Shown here piece by piece: positions 1 to 59,743 of a stretch of DNA of 64,000 bases (the first letter of the stretch is position 1; the number at the start of each line of letters is the position of its first letter). The notes beneath the pieces are model-generated. The model ran no database searches, was not told the DNA's origin, and saw only the letters and a program-made list of their open reading frames with translations. Source of the stretch: a virus (lineage: Duplodnaviria; Heunggongvirae; Uroviricota; Caudoviricetes); IMG/VR virus record IMGVR_UViG_2617271087_000004. The stretch is one strand, 5' to 3'. Made by a program: the position numbers and the translations under genes.

Positions 1-26
1 TTAATTACATCGTAAGGGCGGCATAA
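1..26 (+). CDS. 3' end of an upstream tail-fibre variable cassette (partial, truncated by window start)
   Basis: Frame 3 of positions 3-26 encodes NYIVRAA-stop, the same C-terminal box that ends the three complete cassettes in this region. Confidence 0.55.
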
Positions 27-45
27 AAACGTTGGTTTGGGAGAA
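20..45 (+). other. site-specific inversion crossover site A (cix/mix/hix-like 26-bp site)
   Basis: GGCATAAAAACG-TT-GGTTTGGGAGAA; right half-site closely resembles hix/gix half-sites (GGTTTTCAAGAA); near-identical copies in inverted orientation at 1601-1626 and 2115-2140. Confidence 0.7.
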
Positions 46-534
46 GGCTCTGCATTACCTGTTGGTGTCCCTGTTCCGTGGCCTTCAGCCACTCCGCCAA
101 CAGGCTGGCTGAAATGCAACGGTGCGGCTTTTTCTGCTGAAGAATACCCGGAACTGGCAAAGGCTTACCCGACAAATAAATTGCCTGATTTACGTGGTGA
201 GTTCATTCGTGGCTGGGATGACGGGCGCGGGATTGATCCAGGTCGCTCTATTTTAAGCGAGCAAGGATATGCAACGGAGGATCATGCTCACGGATTACCG
301 TCAAAATCAACCGTAGCAACTGACAGCTCAATTAATTTCTACTTTGACGAGGCATGGGCTACTAGTGGTAATACGGGAGTTATCAGATGGGGGAACACAA
401 GCGATGCAGGATTGCCAGCCCCTAATTATGGAACTTTTAAAACATATAAACAGTCCGTAGCTAATTTAGGTACTGCTGGCTTAGAAACCCGCCCTCGTAA
501 TATTGCATTTAATTATATTGTGAGGGCGGATTAA
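37..534 (+). CDS. tail fibre C-terminal variable cassette (Sv-type), no native ATG; expressed only when joined to the constant part
   Basis: Shares conserved 5' box (GEGSALPVGVPVPWP..TPPTGWLKCNGAAFS) and 3' box (ETRPRNIAFNYIVRA) with ORFs 1151-1609 and 1620-2093; variable middle. Confidence 0.75.
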   Translation: MGEGSALPVGVPVPWPSATPPTGWLKCNGAAFSAEEYPELAKAYPTNKLPDLRGEFIRGWDDGRGIDPGRSILSEQGYATEDHAHGLPSKSTVATDSSINFYFDEAWATSGNTGVIRWGNTSDAGLPAPNYGTFKTYKQSVANLGTAGLETRPRNIAFNYIVRAD

Positions 535-539
535 TTATA

Positions 540-1151
540 TCAACTGGCTGTAGAAAGTTGTTTTTCAGGCCAGTTGAGATCTGGTGCCGTGGTTAAATCC
601 ATCGCGTTCAGCTCGTCTATATAATCTAGCACGGAGTTAAGCTGCGTGGTTTCTGCCTGCGTCAACTTCCGTCCAGCCCGTAATTTCAACTGAATCAGAC
701 TAATGGAATCCATCGCAGTATCAATCAATGACTGACGTTTTGTTTCTGCTGCCTCTACAGCTGCACTATGTTGAGCCTCAGTATCAACCACCCATTTCTC
801 TCCATCCCATTTGTCGTATGGTGTTAGCGGGGCGATAGTGGTTGTATTTTCCGGATAGTCACCCAACACCGTGATTTCTTCGGGATTCCCTGTGTCAATG
901 CTATAGACAGTTTCGCCACGATGATCTGGCACATACTCCCATGAACTTAAATCCTCTGAACGGAGAATCGCATAACCTGCTTTATGTGAGCCTGGAGCAT
1001 CCAAACAAGAATGTGCCGGAATACCAACGCCAACAGCAAGATATTCAGTTGATGCAGAAATATATTCCCGATTACCACCATCATAGTTATAAACGATAAT
1101 GTTTCCTGCCTGTATGGCTATAAGTTCGCTATTTAATATCGCATTATCCAT
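540..1151 (-). CDS. tail fibre assembly protein (Tfa / P1 U-like chaperone)
   Basis: 203 aa, immediately downstream of cassette 1151-1609 on the same strand with overlapping stop/start; composition and C-terminal DYIDELN motif typical of Tfa proteins. Confidence 0.7.
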   Translation of the reverse strand: MDNAILNSELIAIQAGNIIVYNYDGGNREYISASTEYLAVGVGIPAHSCLDAPGSHKAGYAILRSEDLSSWEYVPDHRGETVYSIDTGNPEEITVLGDYPENTTTIAPLTPYDKWDGEKWVVDTEAQHSAAVEAAETKRQSLIDTAMDSISLIQLKLRAGRKLTQAETTQLNSVLDYIDELNAMDLTTAPDLNWPEKQLSTAS

Positions 1152-1609
1152 TATGCTGCTCTCACAATATAATTGAAGGCAATGTTACGTGGGCGGGTTT
1201 CATTCCCCCCAGATAACTCCGTTCTGTATTGACTGGTAAATTTACCATTAATCGCTCCTTCTTGGACGGCGTTATCTGTCGACAACAGGCTATCCCCCCC
1301 TCTGTCATTTGGCACCAATACCGTGTTATCCCACGCGTCCCATGACCGAATATTATGATAATGACTTCCTGTTAACCACCCCTGTATGCTTAAGATGACC
1401 CTTCCCGCATCCACACCTCGCCCATCATCCCAACCACGGATAAACTCACCGCGTAAATCAGGTAATTTTAACGTTGGGTAAACCTTTGCCAGATTTGGGT
1501 ACTTTTCAGAAGAAAATGCTGCGCCATTGCATTTCAGCCACCCCGTTGGAGGTGTGGCTGATGGCCACGGAACGGGCACGCCAACGGGCAGTGCAGAGCC
1601 TTCCCCCAA
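1151..1609 (-). CDS. tail fibre C-terminal variable cassette (alternative)
   Basis: Same conserved N- and C-terminal boxes as 37-534; divergent central region. Confidence 0.75.
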   Translation of the reverse strand: MGEGSALPVGVPVPWPSATPPTGWLKCNGAAFSSEKYPNLAKVYPTLKLPDLRGEFIRGWDDGRGVDAGRVILSIQGWLTGSHYHNIRSWDAWDNTVLVPNDRGGDSLLSTDNAVQEGAINGKFTSQYRTELSGGNETRPRNIAFNYIVRAA

Positions 1610-1626
1610 ACCAACGTTTTTATGCC
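1601..1626 (-). other. inversion crossover site B
   Basis: TTCCCCCAAACC-AA-CGTTTTTATGCC, reverse complement of site A with 1-2 mismatches; positions 1609-1645 are an exact reverse complement of window positions 1-36. Confidence 0.7.
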
Positions 1627-2093
1627 GCCCTTACGATGTAATTAAATGCAACGTTGCGAGGGCGAGTTTCTGTACCTACATTTCCACTAATTTCACCATA
1701 ACGTTTAACACTACGAGAGCTAATAGCTCGTAGTGAGGAAGGCACCTTATGACCGGGTTCGTCCGTTTTAACTATTCCCCCGTCACCGTATGTAGCTAGT
1801 ATTCCTGGATTTACGCCTTCCCGTGCACTTCCTGCGGCGAGTCCGTCCCCTGTCCATAATTCCATATAGTGTGCATGGTCCAAAATTGTGTGTGGCTGCC
1901 AATTAAGCAAAGCGCGGCCAGCATCCACCCCGCGCCCATCATCCCAACCGCGAATAAATTCTCCCCGTAAATCCGGTAATTTATTGGTGGGGTAGGCTTT
2001 TGCCAGTTTGGGATACATTTCAGAAGAAAATGCTGCTCCGTTACATTTCAGCCACCCCGTTGGCGGTGTTTCTAAGGGCCACGGAACGGGCAC
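1620..2093 (-). CDS. tail fibre C-terminal variable cassette (alternative)
   Basis: Conserved boxes PVPWP..TPPTGWLKCNGAAFS and ETRPRNVAFNYIVRAA; different central segment. Confidence 0.75.
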   Translation of the reverse strand: MPVPWPLETPPTGWLKCNGAAFSSEMYPKLAKAYPTNKLPDLRGEFIRGWDDGRGVDAGRALLNWQPHTILDHAHYMELWTGDGLAAGSAREGVNPGILATYGDGGIVKTDEPGHKVPSSLRAISSRSVKRYGEISGNVGTETRPRNVAFNYIVRAA

Positions 2094-2114
2094 GCCAACG
2101 GGCAGCGCCGAGCC

Positions 2115-2140
2115 TTCCCCTAAACCAACGTTTTAGTCTT
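2115..2140 (-). other. inversion crossover site C (adjacent to invertase gene)
   Basis: TTCCCCTAAACC-AA-CGTTTTAGTCTT; third copy of the crossover motif, inverted relative to site A. Confidence 0.65.
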
Positions 2141-2194
2141 AATCCCTACCTATACCAACGATGTATTTTTAACTAAACAAAGAGGTTGTTTTTC

Positions 2195-2767
2195 ATGCAA
2201 ATTGGCTACATTCGTGTGTCAACAAATGACCAAAACACAGATTTACAAAGAAATGCACTGAACTGCGCAGGATGTGAACTGATTTTTGAAGATAAAATAA
2301 GCGGAACAAAGTCAGCCAGACCAGGCTTGAAAAAGCTGCTCAGAACGTTATCAGAAGGAGATACGCTGGTTGTCTGGAAGCTGGATAGGCTTGGCAGAAG
2401 TATGAAACACCTTATCACGCTTATAGAGGAGTTGCGGGAAAAAGGTGTTAATTTCCGTAGTCTGACAGACAGTATTGACACATCAACACCCATGGGGCGT
2501 TTCTTTTTTCACGTCATGGGGGCTTTAGCAGAAATGGAACGTGAATTAATTGTTGAGAGAACACTGGCCGGACTGGCAGCTGCACGCGAACAGGGACGCA
2601 TTGGCGGACGTCGCCCGAAGTTGACAAAAGAACAACATGAGCAAATAGCGAGGTTGATCGAAAATGGCTACAGCAGGAAACAGTTGGCAATTATTTACGA
2701 TATCGGTGTATCGACGATTTATCGTTATCATCCTGTAGAGAAGCGCCAAACTCAATCTGAGCTGTAA
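2195..2767 (+). CDS. cin: serine DNA invertase, Cin/Min/Pin/Gin/Hin family
   Basis: MQIGYIRVSTNDQNTDLQ...VVWKLDRLGRSMKHL...GRFFFHVMGALAEMERELI..C-terminal HTH; catalytic Ser in YIRVST; RBS AGAGG 9 nt upstream of the ATG at 2195 (ORF track starts at TTG 2186). Confidence 0.9.
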   Translation: MQIGYIRVSTNDQNTDLQRNALNCAGCELIFEDKISGTKSARPGLKKLLRTLSEGDTLVVWKLDRLGRSMKHLITLIEELREKGVNFRSLTDSIDTSTPMGRFFFHVMGALAEMERELIVERTLAGLAAAREQGRIGGRRPKLTKEQHEQIARLIENGYSRKQLAIIYDIGVSTIYRYHPVEKRQTQSEL

Positions 2768-3202
2768 TTCTAATGCCGCGTCGGTGTAATTTATCTTGAT
2801 AGAATAGGTACATTTATCGCGCGGCACATCAATTCGATGTATCTAGCGCCTGCTGACCGCTAATGAAAACTGTCCTCGAAATGTTGTCCCTAGCCCGAGA
2901 CTAGGGTATCACCTCTGGAAAGCATACGCAGAACCTTTTTTAACCCAGGGTGCCCAGCCTTTTTGCTGCTCGCCTTATTCGCAAAAATTAGCTCACATCC
3001 TGCGCTTTCAAGTGCTTTTCACTGCATAGCTGTGTTTTGTTCATTTGTCTATATGCGTACATAGCCTATTAGCATATTTTCTGCCCACTATCGTTATTTA
3101 TTGCAAGCTAAAGGTTTTAATTAACAAAACCAGTGTGTGTGGAAATCACAAAGTGCATACCGTTCTCAGATGTTGTTCAACTTACTGTTGTATAGGTAAA
3201 AA

Positions 3203-3466
3203 ATGACATTTTATGTACATATCGTGATGTTATCCCTTCTTGGTGGGGTGTATTCGTATTTGAGTGGGCTATGTGAAAACCGTTACGAGTCTTCATGCAA
3301 GAAATTGCTGGCCGAATGTATTTCCGCCGTACTTGCTGGCTTTATTGGCATGTATCTCGCGGAATATAAGGATATGAATGAAAGCCTTCAGAGCTGCATG
3401 GTTCTTATTTTCAGCGCCAATAGCAGGCTTATTATTGAAGGTTCCAAAAGTCGGTTGAATAGGTAA
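3203..3466 (+). CDS. small membrane protein, possibly lysis-associated (LydC-like)
   Basis: 87 aa, two hydrophobic segments, position upstream of holin-like gene. Confidence 0.4.
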   Translation: MTFYVHIVMLSLLGGVYSYLSGLCENRYESSCKKLLAECISAVLAGFIGMYLAEYKDMNESLQSCMVLIFSANSRLIIEGSKSRLNR

Positions 3467-3540
3467 GTCTCTTATGCAACATAACCGGTTGAGAAGTTAC
3501 TTTGCATACCATTACCTCCTGACAACGTAGGAGGGAACTT

Positions 3541-3870
3541 GTGCTTGACACACAGGAATTAGCTCCAGTTGCTATTGCGCTCCTGCTTTCAGTAATTGGT
3601 GGGATAGGCACGTTCCTGATGGATGTCCGAGACGGTCGCCAGTCTGGCAATTTGTTGGGATTGGTTACGGAGATCTTTGTTGCAGTGACAGCTGGCGCGG
3701 TGGCGTACCTATTGGGGCAACACGAGGGCTGGGAGTTATCCATTACGTACTTAATGGTAACGATAGCCAGCAATAACGGTCATGAGGTGATTTCAGGGAT
3801 GAAACGAGTGAATATCGATAGCATTCTGAATGTTCTTACAAGTTTGGTGAAAAAGGGAGGCGGGAAATGA
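3541..3870 (+). CDS. lydA: holin-like protein (P1 LydA-like)
   Basis: 109 aa with two transmembrane segments and charged C-terminus; GTG start with RBS AGGAGGGAA; order lydA-lydB-hdf-darA as remembered for P1. Confidence 0.6.
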   Translation: MLDTQELAPVAIALLLSVIGGIGTFLMDVRDGRQSGNLLGLVTEIFVAVTAGAVAYLLGQHEGWELSITYLMVTIASNNGHEVISGMKRVNIDSILNVLTSLVKKGGGK

Positions 3871-4310
3871 TTGGCTGGGGTGTATGCGTTCTTGCGTTAG
3901 CCTTAGCCGATCGCTATTTGCTAAAACGCAAGGACATCACGCATTTAGAACTTGGTGATGTGGAAATTAAACCGGGTTTCATCCGGGTGCCGTTCAAATA
4001 CCGGTCTAAATTCCCGTTTTTGCGCGGCGCAACGGTCAGATATTGGATCCGCGATGTTCAGAAGCCGACGACAGTGATTGAAGGCGAACAACGTTGTTTG
4101 ACGTCGGCTGAACAGGGCGAAAACAGTGAATGGTTGTACATACCCACTGAATATATGGGTAAAGGAGAGCGACTGTGGCATTTCAACGTCATGGTTACGC
4201 ATGGCGACTCGTTCATTAACCCGTTGTATCGGATTTTCCCTGTTACTCAGCAAATCCGCAGAAGTTACGTAATAAATCTCGCACAGGATGTGTCAGATGA
4301 CGAAAAATAA
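3867..4310 (+). CDS. lydB: LydB-like holin antagonist
   Basis: 147 aa, start overlaps the holin stop; position in dar/lyd operon. Confidence 0.5.
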   Translation: MIGWGVCVLALALADRYLLKRKDITHLELGDVEIKPGFIRVPFKYRSKFPFLRGATVRYWIRDVQKPTTVIEGEQRCLTSAEQGENSEWLYIPTEYMGKGERLWHFNVMVTHGDSFINPLYRIFPVTQQIRRSYVINLAQDVSDDEK

Positions 4311-6820: not shown

Positions 6821-7182
6821 CACTATCAGCTATTGAGTTAATGGATCTCAGCGATAAGTTGGATGCTCTGATGTCCAAAGCGGCTACCGCGAGTGGCATG
6901 GAGTTGCTGGATATCAGCGATGAAATTGACCAGATCATGCAACAGATGGGGTACGGTGTGTCCGGCGGCAGTAGTGGCGAGGAAAAACAACCTTCGGTAC
7001 ATGATGGTGTGCCAAAACTGGTTGCTGATTTCCTGGCTGATAAATTCGTCGATCAGAGCACCGATGCATTTATCGGTACCTTGCAGGATTTGAGTCAATA
7101 TGTTGGCACATACATCGACCTGGACCAGGTTAAACAGCACACGGCGGCATGGATAGCCGCCAACATTAAAGAGGCAGCATAA
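6817..7182 (+). CDS. ddrA: DdrA-like protein
   Basis: 121 aa acidic protein downstream of darA; assigned by position. Confidence 0.45.
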   Translation: MTLSAIELMDLSDKLDALMSKAATASGMELLDISDEIDQIMQQMGYGVSGGSSGEEKQPSVHDGVPKLVADFLADKFVDQSTDAFIGTLQDLSQYVGTYIDLDQVKQHTAAWIAANIKEAA

Positions 7183-7194
7183 GGCGTAACAGGG

Positions 7195-10182
7195 ATGAGC
7201 TTAAGCGATCAGGTGGTAATGGCCACCAGCATAGAAACGCTGATCGAGCTGCTAAAGAACCTGCCCGATTATGGGCGGGTTTCGTATGTGGTGACAGCGA
7301 AGGGAGACGAGGTAAAAACAGCGTTTGATATCGTCGATGCCTCAGCTCTTTTGGTATCCAATACTCTGGATGGGAAAATTAATCCTGACTATCCCCAGGA
7401 ACTTCAGCCGCGCGACCGGACCCGCGCATCCAGCCTTCTTCAGGTTAACCAGATATCCAAAGATTTGCGGCCAGCTCAGCTTACTGATTCCGGTTTATCC
7501 AGCCATGGCGCGCCGATAATTGGTGAGGACAATGCCGTTGAGTCAGGTAATGGACGGACCATGGGGATCATCAAAGCCTATCAGGACGGTAATGCGGATC
7601 GGTATCGGGAGTACCTGATTGAACATGCGACCGAATTCGGCATACGGCCTGAAAAGGTTGAATCAATGACGGCTCCGGTACTGGTGCGCCGCCGGTTAAC
7701 GAAGGTTGACCGTGTTCAGTTTGCCAAGGACTCAAATATTTCTGATCTCCAGGAAATGGCAGCCAGTGAAAAGGCTTTTGTTGATGCCGACAGCATAACA
7801 CCGGCGATGATGGCGTTGTTTAACCCGTCAGAAAGCGGAGATCTGCTTAGCCGCAGTAATGACGCGTTTATTCGCGGATTCATGACGCAAGTTGGTGCCA
7901 CACAGGCGGCTGGCCTTGTAACTGAAGATGGGCGACCAACACGGCAACTTGTTGACCGTATACAAAACGCGATCTTTGCCAAGGCATATAAGGATGCGCG
8001 CCTGGTAAGGATGGTTGCAGAAGAACCTGATCCGGATATGCGTAATGTTCTGACGGCGCTTAATGCGGCAGCCAATGATTTTGTCCAGATGCAGGCTTTA
8101 TCAGGAGAAGCGCACAAGCAGGCTGTGACAACTATTGTTGATGGCATTGAGACAGCGGATAGCCTCGATAAAAAGGCGCTGGCGGCATTGAAAGATGCGG
8201 TAGACCTGGTAAGGCAATCGAAGGAGTCAGGCCAGCATATTACCGATGTTATTGCTCAGGGGGATATGTTCAGCGAAACGGCCCCGGAAGTGAAAGCACT
8301 CGCGTTGTTCATCGTCGCGAATAACCGTAGCGCGAAGCGTATGGCCACCGCCTTTAAGTTGATGGCGCAACGTATCAATGATGAGTTACAGCACCAGGGC
8401 CAGGCGCTCGGGGATATGTTTGGCGGCGGCGATGTGTCGTTACAGGATATCCTTCGCCAGGTGTCTCAGGAACTGGAATACGAAGGCATGCAAGGGATAT
8501 CCGGCGGTCTTTTCGAGTCCGTTTCCGGCGGTAGTTACAACGGTGTTGCTCCGTATACCAGTTTGCTATTACATCGGGCATCCGGCATCAAAGACATTAT
8601 TCATCTGATCAGGCTGCTTTCCCGCACAGATCCCCAGGATGAACAGCTTGTACAAGTGCTTGCGCATTTTGTTCGAATGCCTGTTGCCGACGTGAAAAAA
8701 TGGTGCCGATTATTCGGTATCAGCAATTCGTTACTTCGCGGCTTGTTAAATCACGCATCCTCCCTTGGGCGCGATGGCTTTGACGAGATAGCGCAGGCGA
8801 TAAAAAACGGAGATATGCCACCAGCTATTGACTGGTTTTCCATTCGCCCAACCAGGGTGAAAGCATTCCTTAGCGCGGCGCATTCGGCATCACCATTGGC
8901 AGAAATGGTTCAGAGGTTGTCGCTCATATTCACAGACCATACCGCGTTGGGTGATCTGACTCTGGACGAGATGAAAGAAGCCTCCATTCAGTGGGCCGAT
9001 CAACAAAATGAGGTTAACTCAGACTTCTTGCCAGCATTCAGGAAGGCCGTTAGTAAAGCGGATGATGCCCGTGGAATTCTGAAGGCATTTAAGGCATTGC
9101 AAAGTCGTGTTAATAAACATGTCGGTGATATCGATGGGGTAACGGCGGAAGGCCGGGATATCCTTAAAGAGCACGGCATAACGCCAGAGTTTATTGATGA
9201 GATCAGGACTGATATGCAGCGTGAGGTCGTATCGTCCCTGCAAATCGTAGCCAGAGCGTTGGCAGATGCTAATCCGAAGAGTGCGGCCATTGTTAACCGG
9301 GTTATTGGTGATATTGAAGCATCGGAGGGCATGGGGGCGCTGAAACTCTTCCTTTCGCGAGCGTTTAATCCTAACGGCAATATTCTCCCTGGCATTATTG
9401 GTGAGGCTAAAAAGTATGTCAGTGAAGAAGAACTTGAGCAGCTTGACCAACTACTTAAGCGATTCTCATATAACCCGCAGACACGCTGGCAAATGAATCA
9501 GCGAAGTATGGGTTCGGTCCACGAGAAAGTGTTATCTGCCATGAACAGTGCGATCGCAAACTCATCCGTATCTGAAGAAAAAGCTCTTGAGTGGGCCGAC
9601 TCTTTTATCACAGAAGAAGTGGAAGAAGCCCGCGCTGGACAGAATGGTGGGATAGACCTGCGCAAGGAACTTGCTGATATTTATCGCCTGACTGGCGGGA
9701 AAATATCGACCTTATCAAAGGTAGTTCACCACCAGGGAAGGGCATATGCAAATCTAAATGGTGTTGTTGCTGTCAATTTGAACGATGAAAATGCAAGTGC
9801 ACTGTGGCACGAGCTGGGTCATCATCTTGAGTACAGTAACCCTGGTTTGTTAGAGAAAGCCCGGTCATTCCTGAAGGCCAATGTTGAAGGGGATAAGCCA
9901 TCTTTCGTCAATATCGGTGGGCGTGGCAAGCCTGAATGGTGCTTCAGATCTCGATTGAGTAATATTTATATGGCGAAGGTATACCCGCCAGCCTCAGTAA
10001 GTAACACCGGGAAAATTCGGCAGAAATCACCGACTATTTCCAAAACGTCAGCAACGGAAGTATTCTCTATGGCTCTTCAGTTGTATCATGACAAAGAGGC
10101 CGCTGCCGCATCACTGATGAATGGTGACGGATTGCTGGAACTGTTATTAGGTGTGGCAAAGGAGCTAAATAATGCAGATTAA
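7195..10182 (+). CDS. ddrB: DdrB-like large internal head protein
   Basis: 995 aa ORF downstream of darA/ddrA; assigned by position and size. Confidence 0.5.
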   Translation: MSLSDQVVMATSIETLIELLKNLPDYGRVSYVVTAKGDEVKTAFDIVDASALLVSNTLDGKINPDYPQELQPRDRTRASSLLQVNQISKDLRPAQLTDSGLSSHGAPIIGEDNAVESGNGRTMGIIKAYQDGNADRYREYLIEHATEFGIRPEKVESMTAPVLVRRRLTKVDRVQFAKDSNISDLQEMAASEKAFVDADSITPAMMALFNPSESGDLLSRSNDAFIRGFMTQVGATQAAGLVTEDGRPTRQLVDRIQNAIFAKAYKDARLVRMVAEEPDPDMRNVLTALNAAANDFVQMQALSGEAHKQAVTTIVDGIETADSLDKKALAALKDAVDLVRQSKESGQHITDVIAQGDMFSETAPEVKALALFIVANNRSAKRMATAFKLMAQRINDELQHQGQALGDMFGGGDVSLQDILRQVSQELEYEGMQGISGGLFESVSGGSYNGVAPYTSLLLHRASGIKDIIHLIRLLSRTDPQDEQLVQVLAHFVRMPVADVKKWCRLFGISNSLLRGLLNHASSLGRDGFDEIAQAIKNGDMPPAIDWFSIRPTRVKAFLSAAHSASPLAEMVQRLSLIFTDHTALGDLTLDEMKEASIQWADQQNEVNSDFLPAFRKAVSKADDARGILKAFKALQSRVNKHVGDIDGVTAEGRDILKEHGITPEFIDEIRTDMQREVVSSLQIVARALADANPKSAAIVNRVIGDIEASEGMGALKLFLSRAFNPNGNILPGIIGEAKKYVSEEELEQLDQLLKRFSYNPQTRWQMNQRSMGSVHEKVLSAMNSAIANSSVSEEKALEWADSFITEEVEEARAGQNGGIDLRKELADIYRLTGGKISTLSKVVHHQGRAYANLNGVVAVNLNDENASALWHELGHHLEYSNPGLLEKARSFLKANVEGDKPSFVNIGGRGKPEWCFRSRLSNIYMAKVYPPASVSNTGKIRQKSPTISKTSATEVFSMALQLYHDKEAAAASLMNGDGLLELLLGVAKELNNAD

Positions 10183-10511: not shown

Positions 10512-11606
10512 TCACGAGAAGCTTTTTTCTGATGTCAGCCAACAGTGCTCGTGCAAATCTCTTGGTGGTTTTTCGACAAATGCCTCTTCAGCCACATCCT
10601 GCCAGGGGATTTGTTTAGCCCATTCAGTTATAGCGTTATGGTTTGCCGAGAATAACGGTATTGTATAGGCCTTCAGCCAGTCTAATGTGCTGGAGTTGTG
10701 TTTTTGAGCGTGATGTTTCGCATGGTGTTTGGCGATCACGATCGTAGGCACTACCCATTTACTACCGTCAGTCATTGTGAAGTGCATATTACGGGGAACA
10801 GATGACTTTTCCATCAACTCCCGAATCCCGGGGAATTTCCCCAAGATCAATCGGCGATATTCATCGCTATTGCGCCCACCAAACTCTTTGGCTTTGAATT
10901 CAAGATATGCTTCAGAAACGAGAGGTGAATCCTCTGTGTTTAGAGTTATCGCCGTGAAAAAACCAGCAGGATTGTTTTTACTATGGGCCAACCGGTGATG
11001 CGAATCATAAAAGTACCCTTTCTCGCGTTCCGATGGTTTCGACAGCAACAGCAGGCGCGAGTCATAATTGGTTAAATTGCCAGTTATCACTGCATGAGCG
11101 CGATCGCTGATTTCCGCCGAGTTAATAACGATGAAAAGATCGTGCGGTCCAGTAAAACCAGCCAGAGACTCTTCGTTATTCAGACAATAGGTTATATAGA
11201 CGCATCCCCATGTTTCACTGATATGCACCAACCCTTTGTCAGGGTGTATTCTGAAATAATTGCCAAGAAAAGGGTGTTTTTGGGTAACTCGCTCCCAATA
11301 ACGGAACATATAGTCAATTATTGTTTTTCGACTATCGTTAATCGCAGGAGAAACAACCACTGTACGGGAACACGAATACAGTATTGTTTGCAGGATGCTA
11401 ATCACTGCCACAATAGAGGTTTCCCCAATACCATGTGGTGTGGTGGCAGTGACTTTGGCTCCGGTGTTCTTTATCGCGTTAATAATTTTTGCTTGATGAG
11501 GTGTTAACTCAATATCAAGCAACTCTTTTGCTGCCAGTTCCCAATTGTCTTTATACCGTTCTATCAGTGCTAACCAGGCAGATTCATTCTGTATACGATT
11601 AATCAC
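10512..11606 (-). CDS. terminase large-subunit (PacB) N-terminal ATPase-domain paralog, predicted ATPase-inactive
   Basis: Colinear similarity to PacB 30839-32323 (e.g. [23 protein letters not shown] vs [21 protein letters not shown]); Walker A Lys replaced (GIGETS vs GTGKS), Walker B DE replaced (IVINSAE vs IIDEASG); no nuclease domain. Confidence 0.6.
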   Translation of the reverse strand: MINRIQNESAWLALIERYKDNWELAAKELLDIELTPHQAKIINAIKNTGAKVTATTPHGIGETSIVAVISILQTILYSCSRTVVVSPAINDSRKTIIDYMFRYWERVTQKHPFLGNYFRIHPDKGLVHISETWGCVYITYCLNNEESLAGFTGPHDLFIVINSAEISDRAHAVITGNLTNYDSRLLLLSKPSEREKGYFYDSHHRLAHSKNNPAGFFTAITLNTEDSPLVSEAYLEFKAKEFGGRNSDEYRRLILGKFPGIRELMEKSSVPRNMHFTMTDGSKWVVPTIVIAKHHAKHHAQKHNSSTLDWLKAYTIPLFSANHNAITEWAKQIPWQDVAEEAFVEKPPRDLHEHCWLTSEKSFS

Positions 11607-57501: not shown

Positions 57502-57577
57502 TACAACCAAATATGGTGGCCCCTACCGGACTTGAACCGGTGACCGTGCGATTATGAGTCGCCAGCTCTAACCACTG
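57502..57577 (-). tRNA. tRNA with CAU anticodon (Met or lysidine-modified Ile2 type)
   Basis: GGCCCTTTAGCTCAGTGGTTAGAGCTGGCGACTCATAATCGCACGGTCACCGGTTCAAGTCCGGTAGGGGCCACCA folds as cloverleaf, anticodon loop CTCATAA, encoded CCA. Confidence 0.8.
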
Positions 57578-57616
57578 AGCTAAAGGGCCGGATTACTGCC
57601 AATTTTGCTTACGCTT

Positions 57617-58444
57617 TTATTTCACCGGAACAAACGGAACAGCGGTATTACTGGTCATATACTGCGGTAATGTACCGTTCCATTTGTTGATCGCTTCCAA
57701 CTCCATAACACCGGGGTTCTGGCGCAGAGCTTCACCACGTAAACGAATGGCATCAGCTTCGGCCTGGGCTTTTGTGCGAATAGCATCAGCCTGTCCGGCA
57801 GCTTCCGCGCGCAGCATGTTGGCCTCTGCTTCACGTTGTTTGACCTCTTGCTCGCGTTGCAGGGTTTTTTGGTTTGCCGTGACTTTGGCGTTAATACTGT
57901 CAATAACTGTTGGCGGGTATTCTGGCTTACCTACATAAGAGAGGCTCATCACCTGAATGCCGATTGGCGTCATTTCTTCCTGAATGTCTTTAAGGGCTGC
58001 ATCAAGCAATTCAGATTTGCCACCGTCGATAAATTTGTCGGTGGTCATTTTGCTGGCTAACCGGTTCAGAGCATCTGCAACCTTCTGGCGTAGATCGGTA
58101 TCAGTAATATCATCTACACCTTTGCGATAGGTCTGAAATACCGTTGTGACTTTTGCTGGATCAACCTTGTAGGCTACGCCGATGTGGTAACCAATGGTTG
58201 TTCCGTCGCTCATCTGGAAGCTGAACGGCTCATCGTATGTCTTCATTTGCTTAAAGGTCGGGAAGATATAAACTTCAGTATTCAAGCCTGTCCAGTAGCG
58301 ACCAACGCCAACTACTTCACCGATACCTTTATCATCCCCCAGCTTATTTACTTTGATCCCTACGTTACCTGGCTCTACCCGATCGCATCCGGTCAGACAT
58401 AAAGAACCCAAAATAATCGCTGCACTAATCAACGTTTTTTTCAT
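57617..58444 (-). CDS. plp: SPFH/band-7-like lipoprotein (Plp-like)
   Basis: Signal peptide with lipobox LTGC; SPFH-like central region; Ala-rich coiled-coil tail. Confidence 0.65.
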   Translation of the reverse strand: MKKTLISAAIILGSLCLTGCDRVEPGNVGIKVNKLGDDKGIGEVVGVGRYWTGLNTEVYIFPTFKQMKTYDEPFSFQMSDGTTIGYHIGVAYKVDPAKVTTVFQTYRKGVDDITDTDLRQKVADALNRLASKMTTDKFIDGGKSELLDAALKDIQEEMTPIGIQVMSLSYVGKPEYPPTVIDSINAKVTANQKTLQREQEVKQREAEANMLRAEAAGQADAIRTKAQAEADAIRLRGEALRQNPGVMELEAINKWNGTLPQYMTSNTAVPFVPVK

Positions 58445-59589
58445 TAATTAATTTCCTGGTTTTTTCACGAAAAAAGACTACTGCGAAAGCCGGGTAAATG
58501 AGCGCGAGAAGGACTCCCAACAATACAAGTATTGTGCTGTTAGATGAGATCATATTTGGCAAAAGCCAAACATACAGAACCAGTGACACAATCAAACAGA
58601 GGACGGCATAAATATATAACCGCACCCATAGCGTTCGACATTTGTTCGGATTGTTCTGCATCCTCTCACTCCATTATTTAACGAATAAAAAAGCTGCGGT
58701 GCCGGGTGCCTCCCGGTGTCCTTTGGCTGGTTATCCACCGTGGACGGGGAAACAAGGAGAAATGAATGGACTGATATAACCATTTCCCCGCGTGCGCTTA
58801 GCCGCATTCACCGCAACGGAAAGAGCATTCTTGGTGGACCTGTAGATTGGGATATGAACCCGTTACAGGAGAATGCTCTTACCTGTTACGTGCTCCGTTT
58901 CGTGGAGCTAACGGCGGGTGATCGGGCCGCACCAAGCTGGACTTATTTCAGCGTTATGCTCATGCCAGAGAATCAAACTGTGATGGTCGGTGCTGAACTC
59001 CGACACAGGGTTGTAGCAAGCCCCGCAAAGCGCGCACTACTGTAGTTGCGGCACATCAGCCTGTGCATTCACCACAATGTTGAGAACACTGGTTGTCACG
59101 CTGCAACGCAACATTTATTCGTAGATTGGGATATGACCCCGTTACGCCAGTGTTCTCAACGTTGTAGTGCCGGTTACGGTTCCGGCCAGGCCTCTTCCTC
59201 AACGGGGTGTTCTCCATACGGACTACCGTTTATTGGTCGTTCCTGCGGTTTATGTTGTGAAGCCAGATGCTTATCTTCTGGTTGCTTCAAAGAGCTGCAC
59301 TTCATCACAACGGTAAGAGCACTCGATGCATTTAAGCCAAGCCCCATAAGGGAGAATGCCCTTACCTGTTGTGTTGTGATGACCGGTGCTGATCTCCGGC
59401 TTGCGGTTATTTCAGACTCTCACGGGCGTTTAATTGCCCCGCCGAACAGCTCTTTTCCGCAATAGCTGCAATGTCTTTCGCGCATCAGCCTGCGCATTCA
59501 TCACAACGGTAAGGGTACTTCGTAGGGATTCGAACCCTCTGCCAAGCTCGGCGATCTCCGACGTCGCAAAATACCCTTACCTGTTGTGC

Positions 59590-59665
59590 TGGTGCCGATT
59601 AACGGACTCGAACCGCTGACATCCTGCTTACAAGGCAGGCGCTCTACCAACTGAGCTAAACCGGC
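59590..59665 (-). tRNA. tRNA-Thr (anticodon UGU)
   Basis: GCCGGTTTAGCTCAGTTGGTAGAGCGCCTGCCTTGTAAGCAGGATGTCAGCGGTTCGAGTCCGTTAATCGGCACCA. Confidence 0.85.
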
Positions 59666-59667
59666 AT

Positions 59668-59743
59668 TGGCGATGGTGGATGGATTTGAACCATCGACCC
59701 GTTGATTAACAGTCAACCGCTCTAACCGCTGAGCTACACCATC
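59668..59743 (-). tRNA. tRNA-Asn (anticodon GUU)
   Basis: GATGGTGTAGCTCAGCGGTTAGAGCGGTTGACTGTTAATCAACGGGTCGATGGTTCAAATCCATCCACCATCGCCA. Confidence 0.85.

Follow-up and report, generated by a model that had tools for sequence, protein, structure and literature searches.

The probable right-hand part of a p15B Min-type tail-fibre inversion region in a P1-like phage-plasmid

The first 2,767 positions of a 64-kb stretch of viral DNA (64,000 nucleotides, hereafter the window) carry several tail-fibre 3' cassettes, one tail-fibre assembly gene, tfa, and a DNA invertase gene, raising the question of whether these parts form a multi-site inversion system and, if so, whether that system is already known. 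The initial annotation had described three complete cassettes plus the tail of a fourth, and the corresponding open reading frames are indeed present (37-534 on the + strand, 1151-1609 and 1620-2093 on the - strand; Table 1). All three match Pfam Collar with E about 1e-15 (1.2e-15 for cassette A), and cassette A also matches two solved structures, the T4 gp37 tip (2xgf, E 4e-16) and a short tail fibre (9cuy, E 4e-17). The conserved 5' and 3' boxes were recovered as repeats: the shared 5' box gives two inverted repeats, one of 258 nt with 82% complementarity and one of 224 nt with 79%, as well as a direct 217-nt repeat at 85% identity, while the shared 3' box corresponds to a pair of inverted repeats, each 52 nt long, at 85% and 83%. 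One boundary had to be moved. The end assigned to cassette C, at 2093, is merely its first GTG codon, and the frame reaches 2129, the stop upstream of it sitting within the outer half of site 3. Cassette frames open at the crossover cores, not at TTG or GTG codons, and the cassettes in the window read in frame from these cores. Cassette A, whose last residues are ..RAD*, is convergent with tfa, and no site separates the two. The arrangement at the end of the fourth cassette, in which an ..AFNYIVRAA* tail leads into a site, is present in every relative of the comparison set described below.

We then scanned the whole 64 kb for the site pattern TTCYCCNAAACCAACGTTTT, allowing up to 3 mismatches. 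Matches with 0 mismatches were found at 26-45 (-), 1601-1620 (+) and 2115-2134 (+) and nowhere else, against a chance expectation of 0.03 matches in shuffled sequence (0 of 100 shuffles reached three), which confirms the three 26-bp sites at the positions first proposed for them. An AA core is common to the three sites, one of which is opposite in orientation to the other two. Their inner halves all agree with that of P1 cix at 10/12 positions, as illustrated by TTCTCCCAAACC of site 1 and TTCTCTTAAACC of cix, with AA as the core in both. The dyad symmetry is imperfect, the outer halves being poor (5/12 symmetric positions). Site 1 stands at the head of cassette A and takes its outer half from the last 7 nt of the fourth cassette; site 2 stands at the head of cassette B, with the 3' end of cassette C as its outer half; and site 3 closes the invertible DNA on the right as a fixed boundary, its outer half, CGTTTTAGTCTT, being invariant across all relatives. 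The constant fibre part (Sc), the R-like gene and the baseplate genes were absent from the rest of the window, in keeping with the earlier view that the constant part lies outside it. Since the leftmost site lies outside as well, the element should hold at least four sites in total.

Table 1. Coordinates of the features of the inversion locus and its right flank.
Feature	Position	Strand	Description
Fourth cassette, 3' end	1-26	+	positions 3-26 read NYIVRAA*; stop 24-26
Site 1 (mix/cix-like, 26 bp)	20-45	-	TTCTCCCAAACC AA CGTTTTTATGCC; core 32-33
Cassette A, type T1	31-534	+	167 aa from core; collar domain, HxH-containing tip
tfa, tail-fibre assembly (chaperone) gene	540-1151	-	203 aa; Pfam Caudo_TAP, E 3e-30, residues 78-197
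Cassette B, type T2	1151-1615	-	154 aa from core; Pfam Collar
Site 2 (26 bp)	1601-1626	+	TTCCCCCAAACC AA CGTTTTTATGCC; core 1613-1614
Cassette C, type T3	1620-2129	-	169 aa from core; Pfam Collar
Site 3 (26 bp)	2115-2140	+	TTCCCCTAAACC AA CGTTTTAGTCTT; core 2127-2128
Min-type serine DNA invertase	2195-2767	+	190 aa, catalytic Ser9 present; Pfam Resolvase E 2e-51, HTH_7 E 3e-15
Putative recombinational enhancer	2217-2279		two Fis-consensus 15-mers in invertase 5' end
psi-cin, dead P1-type cin promoter region and first ~59 codons	2898-3164	-	89% nt identity to P1 cin

The gene beside the rightmost site proved, as had been proposed, to be an intact serine invertase gene with Resolvase and HTH_7 domains. 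It reads away from the invertible DNA, and site 3 sits 55 bp upstream of its ATG. Its product has the build of a Din serine invertase, a small serine recombinase with a catalytic N-terminal domain and a C-terminal HTH; it matches the Gin structures 4m6f and 3uj3 with E about 1e-92, shares 74% amino acid identity with P1 Cin and conserves the MQIGYIRVSTNDQ motif. The exact protein (WP_001165547.1) is found on at least 1000 contigs. Enhancers of the Din family consist of two Fis sites 48 bp apart in the 5' end of the invertase gene. Here, Fis-consensus 15-mers lie at 2217-2231 and 2265-2279, their starts 48 bp apart; they occupy positions 23 and 71 of the gene, just as their counterparts in P1 cin do, and the region agrees at 58 of 72 positions with an enhancer annotated in the P1 record. 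Judged by these sequence features, the invertase presumably depends on this enhancer and on Fis.

Multiple DNA inversion by the Min system of p15B, in E. coli 15T-, was reportedly described by Sandmeier, Iida, Arber and colleagues in 1990-1992 (GenBank X62121). The system is said to have six sites and 240 isomers, and a truncated, inactive invertase gene, psi-cin, reportedly adjoins min. The window contains such a remnant: positions 2898-3075 (-) resemble the 5' end of P1 cin at 89%, with two in-frame stops that replace codons Ser9 and Arg19, and with a CA-to-AG change in the proximal Fis-like site. This remnant maps exactly to p15B nt 7147-7408. An offset of +4244 (p15B coordinate = window coordinate + 4244) places all four P1/p15B homology blocks of the P1 GenBank notes, with identities of 83.1, 89.7, 84.0 and 99.6% where 83, 89, 84 and 99% are recorded, and the flank comprising the invertase gene, psi-cin, lydC and lydA is collinear with p15B to the base. 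Furthermore, plasmid pMCR_SCKP-LL83, for which 99% identity to p15B min has been published, aligns with the window over 92% of the query at 95%. Together, the notes in the P1 GenBank record and this published comparison lead us to infer that the locus is, at the sequence level, the p15B Min system. The two share a serine invertase reading away, several sites with a fibre 3' cassette behind each, a constant part rich in repeats (seen in the relatives) with a small ORF and a late promoter upstream, and an architecture that gives 240 isomers for six sites. They differ in that p15B Min has six sites whereas close relatives of the window element have 4-10, their cassettes belonging to at least 12 types. 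Positions 1-2767 thus very probably represent the right-hand part of a Min-type multiple inversion region in a P1/p15B-like phage-plasmid. The Min-type tail-fibre switch is real and well formed, but already known, and our analysis re-identifies the system of 1990-1992.

To ask what such a region does over time, 12 related P1-like plasmids were compared. The fixed outer halves at both ends are the same across the 12, whereas the number of sites varies from 4 to 10 and the cassettes, of 12 types altogether, occur in permuted order. These shuffled cassettes and variable site numbers, together with the collinear p15B flank, bear out the multi-site, p15B Min-like reading of the initial annotation. 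In each relative, a single central segment is two-headed, [A> <tfa <B]; it lies forward in 6/12 and backward in 6/12, while the free cassette types occupy many positions on both sides of it and can each occupy the expressed position. Seven cassette types were found at that position, and the fusion to the constant part is in frame in all 12 relatives. The arrangement also differs widely among relatives that encode the same protein, WP_001165547.1. The model gives (n-1)! x 2 isomers for n sites; enumeration yields 240 for six, the number given for p15B, and the up to 10 sites per element would allow more than 700,000 isomers in principle. As a side observation, two relatives look reduced or degraded, L002 having only 4 sites and L010 frameshifted cassettes.

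Are these rearrangements the work of the invertase? The 5' box repeats, of 217-258 nt at 79-85% identity, could instead serve RecA-type homologous recombination between collar repeats of 220-260 bp, with the invertase irrelevant or inactive. Such exchange, or gene conversion, has taken place, as shown by the mosaic 5' boxes of different plasmids, in which blocks such as PSAT/PLET and SEKYPNLAKVYPTL/SEMYPKLAKAYPTN assort semi-independently of the core type. Homologous exchange therefore also contributes over evolutionary time. As the main engine, however, it is very improbable. The junction with the constant part falls at the same nucleotide in 12/12 loci and with 7 cassette types, the sites are conserved far beyond chance, and the ORF of the invertase is intact and has an extremely wide distribution. 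The comparison of L007 with L019 is also telling. These two relatives are near-clonal in backbone and hold the same set of cassette alleles, which differ between them in order and orientation, and the 5' boxes of the relocated cassettes are identical except for the first codon. The leftmost cassette begins with an L codon (CTT), while the same types begin internally with a V codon (GTT), and this L/V switch places the junction at the 2-bp core.

If the invertase rather than homologous recombination moves the cassettes, it might still have ceased to do so in the element studied here, leaving a frozen relic whose parts are recognisable but which expresses one fixed fibre. The adjacent inactivated cin remnant shows that invertase genes decay at this locus, and the reduced state of L002 and L010 fits the same picture. 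We nevertheless give this reading very little weight, because the invertase is full length and keeps its catalytic serine and HTH domain, the Fis-like sites of the enhancer and their spacing are intact, the AA core is present in all three sites, and close relatives with an identical invertase display many arrangements. Least credible of all is a two-state switch of the Cin/Pin type that uses two sites and carries the extra cassettes as passive duplicates. Two-state relatives of the pSJ_98 type do exist at the same locus, with L013 and L014 in opposite orientations, but the three sites of the window are equally good, and the placement of cassettes across positions and sides is impossible for a two-site switch.

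The window was also compared with other known systems. Cin of P1, like Gin/G of Mu and Pin/P of e14, shares with the window the recombinase family and the location of the enhancer within the gene, and P1 Cin also shares the inner half-site, the AA core and a tail-fibre C-terminus as target. However, the P1 system switches between two states by means of two sites, and a separate U/tfa belongs to each Sv, whereas the window has at least three sites and one tfa; and P1 cin reads toward its segment, with cixL at its 3' end, whereas the window invertase is directed outward. The two-state switch of the pSJ_98 type (L013-L018) lies at the same locus with the same flanking genes and a related invertase, but its cassettes number just two, and a separate tfa follows each of them. 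This family, which occurs in either orientation while the backbone is otherwise similar, had been considered as a presumably clonal source of Min isomers; it carries the two-state switch instead and was used as a comparator. The R64 shufflon is alike in logic only, overlapping invertible segments selecting the C-terminus of one protein. It acts through the tyrosine recombinase Rci at sfx sites on the pilus adhesin PilV, whereas the window recombinase belongs to the serine (Resolvase) family and its target is a phage fibre.

Based on these comparisons, we propose the following scheme for the Min locus. The fibre gene S would be expressed late, its constant 5' part lying just to the left of the window and its 3' end being supplied by promoterless cassettes. 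At its end, the constant part would read ..NYLGLGEG and meet a site whose outer half is GGTAATYAAGAA. Each cassette starts with its 26-bp site, whose inner half encodes G-L-G-E of the conserved collar domain, and the stop codon that ends a free cassette forms the outer half of the site that follows. The invertase, presumably aided by Fis at the enhancer in its own 5' end, would pair any two sites of opposite orientation and, by strand exchange at the AA core, invert the DNA between them. With one segment two-headed, [A> <tfa <B], and the other cassettes single-headed, each isomer would fuse one cassette in frame to S, and a lysogenic clone would give rise to virions with different receptor-binding tips. 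Such shuffling of tips would be expected to alter host range, and could explain how host range varies from a single lysogen in P1-like phage-plasmids, which are very common and often carry resistance genes. Assemblies of a Min region would then be arbitrary snapshots of a mixed population, in which silent cassettes are called as separate 'phage tail protein' genes by annotation pipelines.

Two matters go beyond the work of 1990-1992. One is the size of the cassette pool: in the searchable literature, we found no survey of the pool of P1-like plasmids, which holds at least 12 types. The other is how the single chaperone gene would serve all the cassettes. Exactly one tfa, always linked to cassette B, is present in 12/12 relatives, and a sequence search of Tfa against solved structures returned no match. 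Cassette B had been singled out as the only cassette on the tfa strand; cassette C is also there, in the order C, B, tfa, but only B is translationally coupled to tfa, its stop overlapping the tfa ATG (TAATG at 1149-1153). The gene thus lies head-to-tail with B and tail-to-tail with A, and no promoter of its own was detected. In L001, a late-promoter box is found upstream of the R-like gene and of S, while no P1 late-promoter box occurs in the invertible DNA, and a search for a tfa promoter serving the A-forward orientation returned sigma-70-like matches below chance. The psi-cin promoter, the one leftward candidate, was also considered as a driver of tfa and dropped: the -10 element of P1 cin, TAAAAT, is here TAAAAC, and the spacer is 1 nt shorter.

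Being promoterless and locked in orientation, tfa is antisense to the fibre operon in every isomer that is A-forward or expresses A, and in about half of the isomers overall. Its transcription is probably limited to isomers with a B-forward central segment, where it would come from read-through of the S late promoter. As tfa flips with the central segment, it is fair to infer that chaperone pairing depends on configuration, as the initial annotation had suggested. Whether the switch thereby controls the supply of chaperone as well as the identity of the tip is a more speculative and rather doubtful proposal. Two outcomes are conceivable: Tfa may be dispensable for the folding of most collar-type tips, or some half of the isomers may yield chaperone-starved, fibre-defective virions, which, if real, would add to phase variation a second layer that is hidden. 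The isomer captured in the window is itself A-forward, with tfa antisense to the fibre operon.

Sequence reading and ORF listing of window positions 1-3600 bore out the layout initially annotated for 1-2767, with three complete fibre-tip cassettes (A, B and C), a tail-fibre assembly gene (tfa) and a recombinase gene. At its left edge the window holds the final 26 nt of another cassette (..NYIVRAA*). Pfam Collar was assigned to all three cassettes (E about 1e-15), and their resemblance to the collar and tip regions of T4 gp37 (2xgf) and gp12-type short fibres identifies them as receptor-binding fibre tips. Structures of the Gin invertase (4m6f and 3uj3) match the recombinase at E about 1e-92, and it shares 74% identity with P1 Cin and has the catalytic serine motif; the ORF listed for it begins at a TTG (2186-2767), and the ATG at 2195 fits the family.

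Features of the inversion region and its right flank
Feature	Position	From site core	Strand	Basis or location
Cassette A	37-534 (ORF)	31-534	+	ORF listing; translation from site core
tfa, 203 aa	540-1151		-	Pfam Caudo_TAP (tail-fibre assembly), E 3e-30
Cassette B	1151-1609 (ORF)	1151-1615	-	ORF listing; translation from site core
Cassette C	1620-2093 (ORF)	1620-2129	-	ORF listing; translation from site core
Recombinase	2195-2767		+	Pfam Resolvase + HTH_7
psi-cin (dead P1-type cin promoter and first ~59 codons)	2898-3164		-	89% identity to P1 cin 5' end
lydC-like holin	3203-3466			after invertase
P1 late promoter LPdar (AAGTTACTT..TACCAT)	3494-3512			after invertase
lydA	3541-3870			after invertase
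lydB	3867-4310			after invertase

The 64 kb contain three copies of the motif TTCYCCNAAACCAACGTTTT (0.03 expected), one on the - strand and two on the + strand, at exactly the three crossover sites proposed from first inspection. All three share an AA 2-bp core, and the inner half departs from that annotated for P1 cix at 2 of 12 positions; the outer halves are poor. Translated from the core, every cassette is in frame with its own site (VGLGEGSALPVGVPVPWP...), and its stop codon and last 7 nt serve as the outer half of the site that follows. A free cassette thus consists of an inner half-site, a coding body and an outer half-site.

The region is matched at 95-99% identity by non-mobilizable E. 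coli plasmids of about 95 kb, whose annotation shows P1 genes (darA, ddrA, lydA/B, C1, Lpa, phd/doc and a Cre-like integrase). For one of them, pMCR_SCKP-LL83, PMC5786510 describes a region with 99% identity to min of p15B. The P1 GenBank record gives four p15B homology blocks with coordinates and identities, and a single offset (p15B coordinate = window + 4244) places all four on the window, with identities to P1 of 83.1, 89.7, 84.0 and 99.6% against recorded p15B values of 83, 89, 84 and 99%. One of these blocks is the dead cin fragment, and the lydC-like holin, LPdar, lydA and lydB follow the invertase in both the window and p15B. We conclude that the feature is the already known p15B-type Min multiple-inversion system; block collinearity and the shuffled relatives described below support the Min-like, multi-site reading of the initial annotation.

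Twelve Min-type loci were compared, eight of them from plasmids with a backbone 98.5-99.8% identical to the window. All twelve share the outer half of the leftmost site, derived from the constant part of the fibre gene (GGTAATYAAGAA), and that of the rightmost site, beside the invertase (CGTTTTAGTCTT). Each locus has 4-10 sites, these two included, and the variable cores fall into 12 cassette types (T1-T12), mutually about 20-30% identical, with closer pairs T5/T7 (57%) and T9/T12 (78%). Each locus contains just one two-headed central segment, [T1(A)> <tfa <T2(B)]; six loci have it B-forward and the other six A-forward, and the remaining cassettes flank it on either side in varying order. L007 and L009 have an identical set of eight types, ordered differently; L007 and L019, with near-clonal backbones and the same allele of each type, differ in order and in a flipped central segment. 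The leftmost cassette begins with CTT (L), and the same types begin internally with GTT (V), the 5' box beyond this codon being unchanged in the clonal L007/L019 pair. The exchange point is therefore the 2-bp core, a signature of site-specific and not homologous recombination. By brute-force enumeration, inversions between oppositely oriented sites yield (n-1)! x 2 arrangements, or 240 for six sites; 240 isomers are reportedly known for p15B. The element to which the window belongs must have at least four sites, which allows at least 12 isomers.

Some plasmids carry the same type twice (T5 in L001; in L012, T4 and T5, each present to either side of the central segment), implying unequal or intermolecular exchange, since inversion alone cannot duplicate a cassette. 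T6 in L019 was called as two overlapping sites at a distance of 44 bp, which may be a site-detection artefact. In the four-site relative L002 (CP090076), cassette B runs on into tfa-like sequence at 10602-10618, giving a 299-aa ORF; a frameshift, a deletion or loss of the stop could be the cause. Having so few sites, this relative may have lost DNA between sites in direct orientation. An E. coli chromosome (NZ_CP128963.1, 2226232-2228487) holds a collinear copy of window 484-2738 at about 90% identity, comprising tfa, B, C and the invertase, and hits H100 and H112 are further such copies in E. coli chromosomes, so the Min-like module sits in chromosomal prophages too.

The collar repeats (217-258 nt) could also allow cassettes to be rearranged by homologous recombination, which has clearly occurred between them over evolutionary time. 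Across L001-L019, the conserved 5' (collar) box in the first 73 codons is a mosaic of polymorphic blocks (PSAT/PLET; SEKYPNLAKVYPTL/SEMYPKLAKAYPTN/AEEYPELAKAYPTN) that assort at least semi-independently of core type, pointing to exchange among the heads of cassettes by gene conversion or homologous recombination. This process comes in addition to site-specific inversion and does not account for the core-precise junctions. That the window copy is a frozen relic is unlikely, since invertase, putative enhancer and sites are all intact and an identical invertase protein accompanies many different arrangements in relatives. A two-state switch does occupy the same locus in other P1-like plasmids, the ~98-kb pSJ_98 family (L013-L018), with two sites and two cassettes, each cassette having a tfa of its own, but it is not what this window holds. 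Within that family, L013 (NZ_CP073964) and L014 (NZ_AP023436) have very similar backbones except for opposite switch orientations, WP_001032314.1 and WP_048218300.1 (both tfa) swapping strands.

Two 15-mers matching the Fis consensus, with starts exactly 48 bp apart, lie in the live invertase gene at the same positions as in cin, inside what the P1 record labels the enhancer. The dead fragment, which we take to be the psi-cin of p15B, reportedly described in 1991, has stops at the codons for the catalytic Ser9 and for Arg19; its proximal Fis-like site carries a two-base change (CA to AG), and its -10 is damaged (TAAAAC). This remnant suggests that the min cassette displaced an ancestral Cin-type invertase gene.

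As initially proposed, there is a single chaperone gene: one tfa in the window and in each of the 12 relatives. Cassette C, however, shares the tfa strand with B, and what matters for the chaperone is which way the central segment points. In L001, a P1 late-promoter box precedes S and the small R-like ORF; the invertible DNA and the invertase flank contain none, and sigma-70-like promoter hits were below chance. With no promoter identified in the invertible DNA, tfa would probably be transcribed only by read-through, in B-forward isomers. The window is A-forward, with tfa antisense to the fibre operon; an expressed A is never co-oriented with tfa, and A is nonetheless intact in every locus. 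Most of these tips may not require Tfa; alternatively, the supply of chaperone may be subject to phase variation too. Tfa had no sequence match among solved structures. Beyond known Min biology, the questions raised are modest: the use of the single tfa and the size of the cassette pool in the plasmid population.

Elsewhere, backbone relatives over window 2141-26000 vary in defence cargo, one carrying a SIR2-family gene, a very large N-6 DNA methylase and Avs4. Three tRNA genes (Met-CAT, Thr-TGT and Asn-GTT) lie at 57514-59743 (-), consistent with the tRNA cluster of P1-like phages.
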